64,000 bases of DNA, taken from the UHGV virus genome UHGV-0038496. The stretch is one strand, 5' to 3'. The DNA comes from a virus. Each line of letters starts with the position of its first letter. Positions within the stretch are counted from its first letter, which is position 1. The notes beneath the pieces were generated by a model. That model saw only the letters and a list, made by a program, of their open reading frames with translations. It had not been told where the DNA came from and did not search any database. The position numbers were made by a program, and so were the translations under genes. This document shows, one piece after another, positions 16,363-20,244 of the stretch.

Positions 16363-16866
16363 GTGTTAAACGTAATCAAGAGAGATCTGACAACAGAACC
16401 TTTTGATGCTCGTAAAATAGTGGTAGCTGCACAAAAAGCCCTGGAGGCATCCGGGGCTGATGTGACAAGAGCATTTCATGCTGCACATTTTATTGCTGAC
16501 GAGATTGTTTCTGAATTGGAGAGCTATGCTCAACATGAAGAGGAGATAACAGTACCTGAAATCCACACAATGGTGGAAAACGCTTTGATGCGTTATGGTT
16601 ATCTGGATGCTGCCCGTGCTTATATTGAGTACCGTAAAACCCGTGATAACAACCGTGAAGCTGCTGGTAAACTGCTGGCAGATGTTAATGGTTTCCTTGA
16701 CCAATCCTGTGATGAATTCACTAAGGAGAATGCTAACAAACCCACCAAGCATGTGCACACTCATCGTGATTTACTGGCCGGGATTCTAAGTAAGCACTTA
16801 GCTGTTACACAGATCCTACCGGAACATATTTCGAAGGCACATACTGATGGTTTTATACATGTCCAT
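16363..16866 (+). CDS. nrdD: anaerobic ribonucleoside-triphosphate reductase NrdD, exon 1 (ATP-cone region)
   Basis: GTG start with GAGGAG RBS; YIEYRKTRD ... RDLLAGI ... GFIHVH colinear with recalled E. coli NrdD; exon inferred to end at T16866. Confidence 0.7.
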
Positions 16867-17828
16867 GAACAACATCGTGGCCTTACTGAGTGATCAGTAT
16901 TGAATAACTCTGTTAACGCTAATTGCAAAGCGGTGTGCAGCGAAAAGCTGTGCTAACGGTTCAGAGGCAGGTGACTGCATTATGAGTAAGGGAGCCTAAA
17001 CCCTTTGGACTAGGGGCAAGGTAATACCGTGCTAAGAATAGTGGCATCCTCTTAACTAGGAGGATGGTATGAATTTAGAATATGTTGATTGTGGGGATTA
17101 CACAATCTATGAAGACGGTTATGTGGTTGACCATATAGATGGCTATTGTGGTTGGGGGTACAGAAACGGTGGATACAGAGAAGCCTATGTTTACATAGGT
17201 GGAGAAAAGAGAAGAATGAAAGTTCACAGGTTAGTAGCTATGGCTTTTATTCCAAACCCTCTGAATTTGCCAGTTGTTAATCATCTGGATGGGAATAAGA
17301 TGAACAACCACAGAGACAATCTTGAGTGGTGCACACAAGGTCGTAACAATATACATGCAATTGAGACAGGATTAAGAAACGTCGCTGAATCGAACAGTAA
17401 GAGGTGGGATGACTCTGCATTCAGAGAAAGAACGGCTTCCAGAATAAGTGCGACACAAAAAGAACGCGGGACAACCGCTGGTAGGAATAATCCTCGTTTC
17501 AAGTATGAGATTGTTAAAGACGGAGATGTGTACACGGCTCCAGAGTTCTTCAATAAATTCAAAGATGTTTATGGTTTAAAACATTTGGAAAATCTGATAG
17601 GTAATTGTTGTGCATACCTCAAGCACAACTTGAAAAGAAAATTCTGGCTTAAAGTTGGAGCAGAGCCACGCTACGCCAAGAAAGAGTAAAACCTTCGGAT
17701 GCCACTATTTATGTGTATCGACTATCCCGTAAGGGAGTAGGTGGGAGATGCTCCCCATCCAAAAGCAGAGGATCTCTAACTAGAGATCGTGATATAGTCA
17801 TTGCCTACAGAAATGTAGGAGAATCAAG
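16867..17828 (+). mobile_element. group I intron 1 in nrdD (carries an HNH homing endonuclease ORF)
   Basis: 5' exon ends in T, intron ends in G17828; CTAAACC...CCGTGCTAAG and CTCTAACTAGAGATCGTGATATAG segments resemble T4 td-type intron core; boundaries inferred from NrdD colinearity. Confidence 0.6.
17069..17689 (+). CDS. HNH homing endonuclease (intron-encoded)
   Basis: VHRLVAMAFIPNP ... VNHLDGNKMNNHRDNLEW HNH motif; AGGAGGATGG RBS. Confidence 0.8.
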   Translation: MNLEYVDCGDYTIYEDGYVVDHIDGYCGWGYRNGGYREAYVYIGGEKRRMKVHRLVAMAFIPNPLNLPVVNHLDGNKMNNHRDNLEWCTQGRNNIHAIETGLRNVAESNSKRWDDSAFRERTASRISATQKERGTTAGRNNPRFKYEIVKDGDVYTAPEFFNKFKDVYGLKHLENLIGNCCAYLKHNLKRKFWLKVGAEPRYAKKE

Positions 17829-18491
17829 GATTTAGATTACATAATTAGTCCATTAACGAACTGTTGTCTTGTAAATTATCCAGACATGCTGGAGCATGGA
17901 TTTACAATAGGTAACGCAACCATAGGAACACCAAATTCTATTAATGTAGCTGCAACAGTTCTTTCACAAATTTCAGCTGCTGTTTCTGGTGGGCAGTATG
18001 GTGGGCAGACGTACAGTCACATAGACCGCTACCTTGTCCCCTATGTAGAAAAAACACATAATAAAAACTTATCTTTCTGTAAAAAACACGGTTTGCCGGA
18101 AAGCGTTGCTGATGAAATGACAGAGAAAGATGTATATGATAGTATGCAATGTTTTCTCTATCAAATCAACACCTTAACCAGCACCAACGGGCAAACTCCG
18201 TTTTTGACTATCAGTTTAGGTCTTGATACTTCTAAATTTGGGAGGATGATCACTAAAAACTATCTTATGGTTCATAAAGGTGGCATTGGTGAAGACCATA
18301 TAACCCCAGTATTCCCTAAAGTCTTGTTCTTCCTTGAAGAAGGGGTGAACATGAACCCAGGTGACCCAAATTACGATTTGAAACGCCTGGCTTTGGAATG
18401 CTCAGCAGAGCGAATTTACCCAGACTTCGTTTCTGTGCCTTTGAACAGAAAAGTGACAGGATCTACTGCTGGCGATGTTACAAGCATGGGT
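17829..18491 (+). CDS. nrdD: NrdD, exon 2
   Basis: DLDYIISPLTNCCLVNYPDMLEHGF ... NGQTPFLT ... PNYDLKRLALEC colinear with recalled E. coli NrdD; no SD upstream, so splicing is inferred. Confidence 0.65.
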
Positions 18492-19269
18492 AAACTACTA
18501 TTGCTCATGTAAAACCTATCTAAACGGGGGAACTCTCTACGGAGAAAATCCCGTGCTAAACGTAACAGAACTCCCGGAGAAAAGGAGTCCTGAAATGAGA
18601 AAACAAATTCGTGATTTTGAAGGGTATGAAATTGACGAGATGGGAAATGTTTATTGCACCCGCTACGAAAAGGAAAGAATCATCCATCCGTGGGAAGAAA
18701 TAAACACAGGCTACCTTCTTGTCAGGATACGCAAGAACAAGAAAACTGTTTGCCTGAGGGTTCACAGACTTGTTGCTGAAGCGTTTTTACCGAATCCAGA
18801 CAATTTGCCCTATGTTAAGCATAAGGGTGACAACAAGAAAGATAACAGCGTATACAATCTTGAGTGGGGTGCTTGCCCAGATAATACCCAGGAAGGTTAC
18901 GACAACAACTGTTATACTTTTTACACAAGGTGTCACGGTGTGAAAGCTACCAACAAACTGACTGGTGAAGTTTTCCACTTTAAGAGTCTGAGATGCTGTG
19001 CTGATACTTTAGGGGTGGATAGAAAAAGAATATCTGCTATCCTGAAGCGTGGAGCACCTAATAACTATGATTACGAGTTCTGTTACGAAATGCCGAACGA
19101 CTAACCGTGATGAATGTAGCGGTGTAGGGTGCAAGCCTATGGCACTCCAAAAGATAGGCACACGAAAGTGTGAAGATATAGTCTGATCTGCATGGTGACA
19201 TGCAGCCGAGCATGGATGCGGTGGATGGAACCAACGGGGGTAGTGTTGCGAGCTACTCTGAACACAATG
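18492..19269 (+). mobile_element. group I intron 2 in nrdD (carries an HNH homing endonuclease ORF)
   Basis: CTATCTAAACGGGGGAACTCTCTACGGAGAAAATCCCGTGCTAAACG closely resembles the T4 td/nrdB intron P3-P6 core; exon 2 ends in T18491, intron ends in G19269. Confidence 0.7.
18595..19104 (+). CDS. HNH homing endonuclease (intron-encoded)
   Basis: ATG at 18595 with AAAGGAG RBS; VHRLVAEAFLPNP ... KHKGDNKKDNSVYNLEW HNH motif. Confidence 0.8.
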   Translation: MRKQIRDFEGYEIDEMGNVYCTRYEKERIIHPWEEINTGYLLVRIRKNKKTVCLRVHRLVAEAFLPNPDNLPYVKHKGDNKKDNSVYNLEWGACPDNTQEGYDNNCYTFYTRCHGVKATNKLTGEVFHFKSLRCCADTLGVDRKRISAILKRGAPNNYDYEFCYEMPND

Positions 19270-20244
19270 TGTAGAAGTTTCTTGAGTAAATACAACGATC
19301 CTGTAACAGGTGAAGAGAAATATCTCGGTCGTTTCAACTTAGGTGTGGTAAGCCTGAACCTACCTATGATTGCAGCTCGTTCCAAAGCTGAACAGGTAGA
19401 TTTCTTCAAACTGCTTGACGAGTATCTTGAACTGGCGTATGATGCTCATATGGTACGTGTGAACCGTTTGAAAGGCACAAAAGCTGGACAGAACCCGATC
19501 ATGTGGTGTGAAGGTGTTCTGGCTCGTCTTGATCCTAATGAGGAGATTGACAAACTGTTCTACGATGGCTATGCTTCTATAAGCATCGGCTATATTGGTG
19601 TTTATGAAACATGCCAGATCCTTGGCAGAGAAGGCGACAAAAACCTTGCTCTGGGTATCCTCCAGCACATGAAGGATAAATGTGTTGAGTTCAAAGAACG
19701 CAGCAGATTAGGTTTTAGCCTGTACGGCACACCAAGTGAAAATCTCTGCTATAAAGCGGCTACTTGCTTAGACAGGGCGTATCCTGGAGTTCTGGAGCAC
19801 GAAAGGGAATATCTGACTAATTCGTTTCATCAGCCAGTCTGGATCAAGAGCAGTCCTTTCGACAAGTGGGACTATGAAACCGGATTCGCAGCGATCTCCA
19901 ACGGAGGGTTCATAGGTTACGTTGAACTACCTAATTTACGTAACAATCTCGATGCTTTGGAAAAAATTGTTGATTACGGGTACACCCATTTGCCATATTT
20001 CGGCATCAACATGCCTGTTGACCAATGCTTCAAATGTGGCTTCCGTGGGGAATTTTCTGCCACTGCAAAAGGGTTCTGCTGCCCTGAGTGTGGTAACCAT
20101 GACGAAAGTAGCATCAGTGTGATCCGAAGAGTATCAGGCTATCTGTCTGCACCTAATGCTCGCCCATTCAATCGAGGGAAACAATCGGAGGTGTTAGAAA
20201 GGGTTAAACATGTCGGCAACGTAGATTGTTGTAGTATCTGTTAA
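19270..20244 (+). CDS. nrdD: NrdD, exon 3 (glycyl-radical domain)
   Basis: CRSFL ... GRFNLGVVSLNLP ... CFKCGF ... CPECG zinc ribbon and RVSGYL glycyl-radical motif; the three exons total 712 codons. Confidence 0.75.
   Translation, partial: CRSFLSKYNDPVTGEEKYLGRFNLGVVSLNLPMIAARSKAEQVDFFKLLDEYLELAYDAHMVRVNRLKGTKAGQNPIMWCEGVLARLDPNEEIDKLFYDGYASISIGYIGVYETCQILGREGDKNLALGILQHMKDKCVEFKERSRLGFSLYGTPSENLCYKAATCLDRAYPGVLEHEREYLTNSFHQPVWIKSSPFDKWDYETGFAAISNGGFIGYVELPNLRNNLDALEKIVDYGYTHLPYFGINMPVDQCFKCGFRGEFSATAKGFCCPECGNHDESSISVIRRVSGYLSAPNARPFNRGKQSEVLERVKHVGNVDCCSIC

Follow-up and report, generated by a model that had tools for sequence, protein, structure and literature searches.

In this work we analysed nrdD, the gene for class III ribonucleotide reductase (RNR), in UHGV virus genome UHGV-0038496; the whole stretch of 64,000 nucleotides that was analysed is called the window below. 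Judged from the sequence, nrdD is split into three exons by two group I introns, each with its own gene for an HNH homing endonuclease, and is probably expressed by splicing, a reading to which we give a probability of about 0.9. This arrangement had been claimed in a preliminary description of the DNA and is upheld here: both introns have the anatomy of the T4 td intron (IA2 type), with the HNH gene looped out of helix P6. The features concerned are the following.

16363..16866, plus strand: nrdD exon 1, with a GTG start and a Shine-Dalgarno (SD) sequence GAGGAG at 16351-16356; ATP-cone and start of the NRDD domain
16867..17828, plus strand: intron 1, 962 nt, td-like group I, terminal G at 17828
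17069..17689, plus strand: intron 1 HNH gene, 206 amino acids (aa), in the P6 loop; SD AGGAGGA at 17058-17064
17829..18491, plus strand: nrdD exon 2, 221 codons, from DLDYIISPLTNCC to GDVTSMG
18492..19269, plus strand: intron 2, 778 nt, T4 td-like group I intron, terminal G at 19269
18595..19104, plus strand: intron 2 HNH gene, 169 aa, ATG to TAA, in the P6 loop; SD AAGGAG at 18582-18587
19270..20244, plus strand: nrdD exon 3, 324 codons and TAA; glycyl-radical domain and zinc ribbon

The three frames are open and can be joined in frame (504 + 663 + 975 = 2142 nt), as described earlier, to encode 713 aa plus a stop and not 712 codons; no frameshift or stop is present within the 713 joined codons. 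In Pfam comparisons the positions of the NRDD profile run contiguously over the three exons (1-46, 47-263 and 264-562), the ATP-cone lies ahead of NRDD in exon 1, and Gly_radical is at the end, in exon 3. The proposed colinearity with NrdD across the junctions IHVH^DLDY and TSMG^CRSFL (^ marks an insertion site) was borne out by gapless alignment to T4 NrdD (1h78, E = 9e-169) and to 9d3x; the joined product has the ATP-cone, the NRDD domain and the glycyl-radical domain of a class III RNR and is colinear with solved NrdD structures. In the alignments to 9d3x and 1h78 the last His of exon 1, which ends in ...GFIHVH, corresponds to T4 NrdD His66, and the first codon of exon 3 is a Cys aligned to T4 NrdD Cys290. 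Intron 1 is inserted between the His and the Asp of an HxHD motif, and intron 2 between the positions of T4 Gly289 and Cys290, the latter being the thiyl-radical cysteine of the T4 enzyme. Two independent assemblies (ENA ERZ28615578, a 140.6-kb metagenome scaffold, and a Logan ERR7738938 contig) agree at 100% identity over the nrdD region of the window, which is therefore not an assembly artefact. By gene content and nrdD matches, the genome is that of a phage of ~140 kb distantly related to the rV5 (Vequintavirinae) and phi92 (Stephanstirmvirinae) groups; no close relative was found among 50,697 deposited phage genomes, where ~4% of a 20-kb probe was matched, at ~84%.

Uninterrupted nrdD genes are present in many rV5-like phages, where the protein is 75% identical and is recovered as one tblastn piece. 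In PMBT16 the uninterrupted DNA reads CATGTGCAT^GATCTTGAC (CAT^GAT) at site 1 and AGCATGGGT^TGCCGGAGT (GGT^TGY) at site 2, and the window counterparts of these empty sites are CATGTCCAT-intron-GATTTAGAT and AGCATGGGT-intron-TGTAGAAGT. Empty, ORF-less and ORF-bearing alleles (ORF, open reading frame) are known for both sites, and across the phages compared nrdD has at least eight distinct insertion sites.

In gene-caller output nrdD appears as three NRDD fragments, as would be expected if the gene were split without splicing and three separately translated polypeptides reassembled, in the manner of the NrdA of Aeromonas phage Aeh1, split by mobE (a precedent cited in PMC3653736 and PMC7344957). 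The layout of the exons makes this extremely improbable. A ribosome-binding site (RBS) is lacking at every candidate start for exons 2 and 3: as previously stated for the downstream exons, no SD sequence is found at the candidate in-frame starts 17886, 19192, 19225 and 19267. Exon 2 has no in-frame ATG, GTG or TTG upstream of 17886, and a separate exon 2 product starting there would lose DLDYIISPLTNCC..., including the Cys aligned to T4 Cys79. The AGGAG present at 17817-17821 makes up the 3' strand of helix P9 of intron 1, and no start codon comes after it. In addition, each break separates two neighbouring codons within a conserved motif, and the RNA in between has complete group I cores. Both inserts also exist in ORF-less form, whereas a free-standing endonuclease cassette would leave no such form. 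An intein was also considered and is ruled out by the stop codons met 8 codons past exon 1 and 6 past exon 2, and by HNH ORFs with starts of their own and with stops between them and the exons.

Both inserts have the splice sites of group I introns. Both 5' exons end in T (16866 and 18491) and both inserts in G (17828 and 19269), as reported from the first inspection, and in each intron P1 forms with the guide sequence through a U-G wobble, P10 can pair, and the last nucleotide is G (G17828, G19269). A conserved core with a P3/P7 pseudoknot and covariation was found in both, with P4/P5 partly resolved in intron 1; P7 is invariant and therefore uninformative for covariation. The presence of P7.1 and P7.2, together with homology to td, places both introns in the IA2 (T4 td) type. 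In intron 2 the complete set of helices from P1 to P10, P5 included, can be assigned on the plus strand.

Intron 2, 5' half: P10 18495-18498; P1 3' strand 18503-18510; P3 18515-18520/19153-19158; P4 18524-18529/18549-18554; P6 18561-18573/19075-19087
Intron 2, P7 domain: P7 19099-19103/19179-19183; P7.1 19104-19123; P7.2 19127-19147; P8 19159-19172
Intron 2, 3' end: P9 19188-19205; P9.1 19210-19219; P9.2 19240-19256

P1 of intron 2 (GCATGGGT/GCTCATGT) has 8 bp, with the U-G wobble at U18491, P10 is CTAC/GTAG, and P6 is a perfect 13-bp stem around the HNH gene. The core of this intron had been called very like that of T4 td, and rightly so: over 80 nt it shares 75% identity with the T-even td intron. 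Common to td and the 3' part of intron 2 are the runs GATATAGTCTGATCTGCATGGTGACATGCAGC and CTGAACAYAATG, and identity to the RB5 td intron is 75% on the 5' side and 66% on the 3' side. Comparison of the window with VB-EcoM-WM and phi92 reveals compensatory changes in five helices (P3, P7.1, P8, P9.1 and P9.2); the P3 variants in this comparison are CCTATC/GATAGG, TCTATC/GGTAGA and TCTGCC/GGTAGA. When the ORF was deleted, an unconstrained fold recovered P1, P3, P4/P5, P6, P7.1, P7.2, P8, P9 and P9.2, with z = -5.91 and none of 100 shuffles equally stable. The Rfam covariance model RF00028, whose gathering cutoff is 50 bits, gave 34 bits (E = 5e-6) for intron 2 in the window and reached only its 3' half, since the ribozyme is interrupted by the ORF; where the ORF is lacking, homologues at this site exceed the cutoff (phi92 70.6, contig L023 82.9 and L026 71.8 bits).

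Intron 1 is the less secure half of the reading, because its RF00028 score is low and because blastn against the phage collection found no close relative, only weak HNH matches and the core of the Vibrio phage phi 3 intron. The following elements were assigned to it on the plus strand.

Intron 1, 5' part: internal guide sequence ATCGTGG 16874-16880 (P10 ATC and P1 GTGG); P2 16885-16898; P3 16908-16913/17765-17770
Intron 1, middle: hairpin A (hpA) 16917-16932; hairpin B (hpB) 16935-16953; P4 16956-16960/17026-17030; P6 17037-17049/17697-17709
Intron 1, 3' part: P7 17720-17725/17794-17799; P7.1 17726-17735; P7.2 17742-17757; P8 17771-17788; P9 17804-17819

The guide ATCGTGG pairs with the ligated exons CCAT^GAT, in a 4-bp P1 and a 3-bp P10 with a G-U pair at the splice site, and a perfect 13-bp P6 stem brackets the HNH gene. 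The 3' part is colinear with td through CGACTATCCC-NNNN-GGGAGTAGG (P7 and P7.1), P7.2, P3', P8, GATATAGTC (J8/7 and P7') and P9; P7 is identical to that of td, and identity to the RB5 td intron is 64% over the 3' core. Once the ORF is deleted, the unconstrained minimum free energy (MFE) structure contains P1, P2, the long-range P3, hpA, hpB, P6, P7.1, P7.2, P8 and P9 (z = -5.68).

Intron 1 belongs to a class whose hallmark is the two hairpins between P3 and J3/4-P4 (16908-16956 in the window; also in loci L007, L013, L016-L018 and L023). These hairpins are not known to us as a trait of IA2, and searching the literature for P3.1/P3.2 hairpins yielded nothing informative. In viral contigs searched by pattern, 13 loci of this class were detected, in various genes. 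Class helices were tabulated from invariant anchors; a MAFFT alignment of ORF-deleted sequences misaligned the variable stems and was not used. P3 is complementary in six of the six members, with varying sequence (CTCTGT/GCAGAG, TTCTGT/GCAGAG, CTTTCT/AGAAAG, CCTTCC/GGAAGG, CTATGT/GCATAG and GTTGGT/GCCAAC), and hpA, hpB, P6, P7.1, P7.2, P8 and P9 are present in every member, each with its own sequence. Contig L023 carries a 329-nt ORF-less copy of intron 1 at the same CAT^GAT site of an nrdD whose exon 1 product is only ~51% identical, and the P6, P7.2 and P8 stems of this copy differ from those of the window yet are complementary. This contig (5499-7024; ENA ERZ28618604 scaffold_146) has three short ORF-less nrdD introns in all, at sites 168, 289 and 389. 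Among public proteins there are NrdD N-terminal fragments ending in ...HVH followed by the intron read-through EQHRGLTE, some of them from nrdD genes ~68% identical. The site of intron 1 together with its class appears not to be represented in deposited phage genomes, yet both occur in metagenomes.

Several observations weigh against the proposed splicing. Splicing is deduced from the sequence, not observed, and HNH-bearing insertions in related phages are not always spliced, as exemplified by one in CB7 (PMC7344957). The covariance-model search, which the preliminary description had named as a check, came out below the cutoff for both introns in the window (34 bits for intron 2, and 16.9 bits with E = 0.7 for intron 1); at the gathering threshold RF00028 finds none of the loci of the intron 1 class, ORF-less members included. 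Elsewhere in the window it gives no further signal at E <= 0.05. P1 of intron 1 has just 4 bp (7 bp with P10), and the P4/P5 region of this intron is ambiguous, the MFE fold disagreeing with the assignment made by hand. Finally, the protein encoded in intron 2 scores 19.3 bits with Pfam HNH_3, under the cutoff of 24.8. As RF00028 stays below its cutoff in the window, where the ORFs interrupt both ribozymes, support for the introns comes from ORF-less homologues, covariation and folding. The failure of the model on intron 1 points to insensitivity and not to the absence of an intron, since a class with two extra hairpins fails even without the ORF.

That RF00028 fails on the whole class, ORF-less members too, and that two extra hairpins lie between P3 and J3/4 might also mean that intron 1 is spliced but non-autonomous, its odd P3-P4 region calling for a protein cofactor or another mechanism. 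We consider this improbable: the succession J6/7-P7-P7.1-P7.2-P3'-P8-J8/7-P7'-P9 is colinear with that of the self-splicing td intron, with an identical P7; intron 1 has the U-G wobble, the terminal G and the P10 pairing; and the extra hairpins are kept as structures over the class despite their differing sequences. A self-splicing intron 1 is thus preferred.

Comparison with a sibling contig, L005 (positions 1-7836; Logan SRR25011112_733), bears on the function of the gene and on the mobility of its introns. The ratio of nonsynonymous to synonymous substitution rates (dN/dS) is 0.076 for exon 1, 0.10-0.16 for exon 2 and 0.058 for exon 3, with dS of 0.5-1.1. Exon dN/dS values of 0.06-0.16 indicate purifying selection on the joined gene and that nrdD is functional, and therefore that the inserts must be removed. 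The poor Rfam score of intron 1, and splicing that is only deduced, would suit a decaying gene in which endonuclease invasion has inactivated nrdD and one or both introns no longer splice. This is highly unlikely, as such dN/dS values are maintained over dS of 0.5-1.1, the 713 codons are intact, the activase gene nrdG (21052-21537 by Pfam) is intact downstream of nrdD, and the split layout is kept in several diverged lineages. The introns differ from the exons in this comparison: nucleotide identity to L005 is 98.8% for intron 1 and 96.1% for intron 2 versus 83-87% for the nrdD exons, dS of the intron HNH genes is 0.04 and 0.19, and the exon tracts beside the introns are near-identical (of the 120 nt that precede intron 2, for instance, 4 differ). 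Because introns and flanks are near-identical while the exons have diverged, exchange of the introns, accompanied by co-conversion of their flanks, postdates by far the divergence of the genes. Recent intron exchange with co-conversion is the classical signature of homing (PMC2988022). Intron homing is thus supported indirectly, by identity, dS, flanking tracts and presence/absence polymorphism, and cleavage by the endonucleases would be its presumed trigger.

The nrdD of L005 itself is in six colinear pieces, with five insertions after residues 168, 226, 289, 389 and 544 (numbered on the window protein). Each insertion has a phrog_59 HNH ORF and group I core motifs, and partial RF00028 matches were obtained only for those at 289 and 389 (33-34 bits). 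More insertions than this have not, to our knowledge, been reported for any phage protein-coding gene. A group II match in this contig (20 bits, E = 0.71) was disregarded as chance.

An HNH homing endonuclease in each intron, another element of the earlier claim, is predicted from phrog_59 matches of E = 4.5e-32 for the protein of intron 1 (ORF 1) and 2.5e-34 for that of intron 2 (ORF 2). Both also match phrog_959 (HNH endonucleases), the two families spanning E = 1e-26 to 1e-34 (2.2e-27 for ORF 2 with phrog_959). ORF 1 reaches 34.1 bits with HNH_3 (cutoff 24.8), and its protein is identical on six contigs; in VB-EcoM-WM the homologue of the 169-aa ORF 2 carries the annotation HNH homing endonuclease. 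The most likely start of ORF 2 is the ATG at 18595 and not 18475 as in the mechanical ORF list, and the 3' end of this ORF overlaps the 3' strand of P6, J6/7 and the 5' strand of P7. Both SD sequences are paired in local hairpins, of -14.6 kcal/mol for ORF 1 and -9.4 kcal/mol for ORF 2, and an RBS-sequestering hairpin has likewise been described for the T4 intron endonucleases (PMC2988022). Outside the introns, a free-standing HNH gene (20299-20808; HNH_3 72.7 bits, phrog_99 E = 1.6e-54) lies between nrdD and nrdG, in the position of T4 mobC (PMC2988022), together with a 52-aa ORF at 20913-21071; a segment of ~800 bp with this HNH gene is missing from L005. More HNH_3 or Endonuclease_7 genes are present in the window at ~9581-10315, 12094-12657 and 23062-23598, according to the gene table of an identical contig (L003), and the genome looks rich in homing-endonuclease genes.

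These properties are consistent with the following model. nrdD would be transcribed as one precursor containing two td-like group I ribozymes, each folded so that P6 loops out the HNH gene. The internal guide sequence would pair with the end of the upstream exon to form P1, with the U-G wobble at U16866 or U18491, where free guanosine would cleave; the exons would be ligated after the terminal G (17828 and 19269), giving an mRNA for a 713-aa NrdD. The HNH proteins would be translated from their own starts, with their RBSs partly masked by hairpins, and may cut or nick, close to the insertion site, the intron-less nrdD of co-infecting relatives. The intron and some flanking exon would then be copied by recombinational repair, which is homing.

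In practical terms, since gene callers give three NRDD fragments, nrdD should be annotated as one spliced coding sequence. Multi-intron phage RNR genes and genes with two spliced HNH introns are already published, and intron 2 is already annotated in relatives. No concept is changed by this finding. The odds seem to us evenly balanced that nrdD is an exceptional intron hotspot in this little-sampled relative of rV5 and phi92, as the eight or more sites across phages and the five insertions in the 2.1-kb gene of L005 suggest, that several of these introns, intron 1 among them, are of the class missed by RF00028, and that intron 1 marks an undescribed homing site. If this is true, the intron 1 class is systematically under-annotated, because RF00028 misses it even without the ORF. 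A blind spot of this model for one intron class has come to light here. With site 2 immediately 5' of the Cys290 codon, this is a further case in support of the view that the most conserved RNR codons are the targets of homing introns. In this family, moreover, alleles are empty, ORF-less or ORF-bearing, and genes have two, three or five introns; such a natural series could serve to study the cycle of endonuclease gain and loss and the interference between neighbouring mobile introns.

At the site of intron 2, insertions are also present in rV5-like phages, in phi92 and in Felix O1-like phages, and since phi92, rV5-like phages and Mushroom carry introns at the same position, intron 2 is a known, widespread element. 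In phi92, gp192A (FR775895) is annotated as a 'spliced variant' at this site and has a homologous td-like core. In rV5-like records such as VB-EcoM-WM, an HNH-bearing intron ~90% identical to intron 2 lies at the same ...MG^CRSF... site, and several of these records are annotated 'nrdD', 'HNH homing endonuclease', 'nrdD'. In phi92, L023 and L026 the intron at this site lacks the ORF, unlike in the window, and in none of the isolate records examined is intron 1 found alongside a site-2 intron. GenBank records MG065635-MG065690 ('Campylobacter phage A142', 'D1', 'C12' etc.), labelled as Campylobacter jejuni phages, match rV5-like coliphages over nrdD and the intron, which makes their host labels look doubtful. 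In Salmonella phage Mushroom (Felixounavirus; L030 1226-1964), whose NrdD is only ~30% identical, a td-like, HNH-bearing intron splits nrdD at ...PMG^CRAF..., and another homing endonuclease gene lies between nrdD and nrdG. No introns were reported in the original genome paper on Felix O1 (PMC3185647).

The introns of T4 td (I-TevI) and T-even nrdD/sunY (I-TevII) are of the same ribozyme type as those of the window, with P7.1/P7.2, an ORF in the P6 loop and a 3' end in ...AACAYAATG, and T4 and window introns also share a nucleotide-metabolism or RNR host gene and an RBS-sequestering hairpin (PMC2988022). They differ in that the T4 intron endonucleases are GIY-YIG proteins while both window ones are HNH proteins, and the T-even nrdD intron, near window residue 278, is at neither of the two sites. 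The nrdD intron of Vibrio phage phi 3 (KP280063; L007 1792-2601) is of the intron 1 class (P3, two hairpins, J3/4-P4, td-like 3' half), at another site than those of the window, the gene being split at ...KRMYP^D... (window residue 366/367). This intron carries a 165-aa HNH-like ORF, and the deposited record gives 'hypothetical proteins' only, with no intron annotation. The uncultured-virus introns L013 and L016-L018 belong to the same structural class, at other sites and in other host genes.

The preliminary description held two HNH-bearing introns within a single gene to be unusual, which is an overstatement given the precedents of CB7, Twort, Brochothrix A9, Jug-phage and L005. The DNA polymerase gene of CB7, from a related subfamily, has two HNH introns, and splicing of both was found by reverse transcription PCR (PMC7344957); nrdE has two introns in Twort, and three introns and an intein in Brochothrix A9 (PMC3653736); the nrdD of Jug-phage is in four fragments, with metatranscriptome support (PMC12880540); and the terL of rV5 is in three segments (PMC3606486). 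Phage group I introns classically reside in RNR genes, and a survey published in 2013 had already found nrdD to be the RNR gene most often split (PMC3653736). CB7, Twort, A9 and Jug-phage thus have, as here, several group I introns, often HNH-bearing, in one essential gene of nucleotide metabolism or replication, and differ from the window in the genes, the sites or the phage groups concerned.

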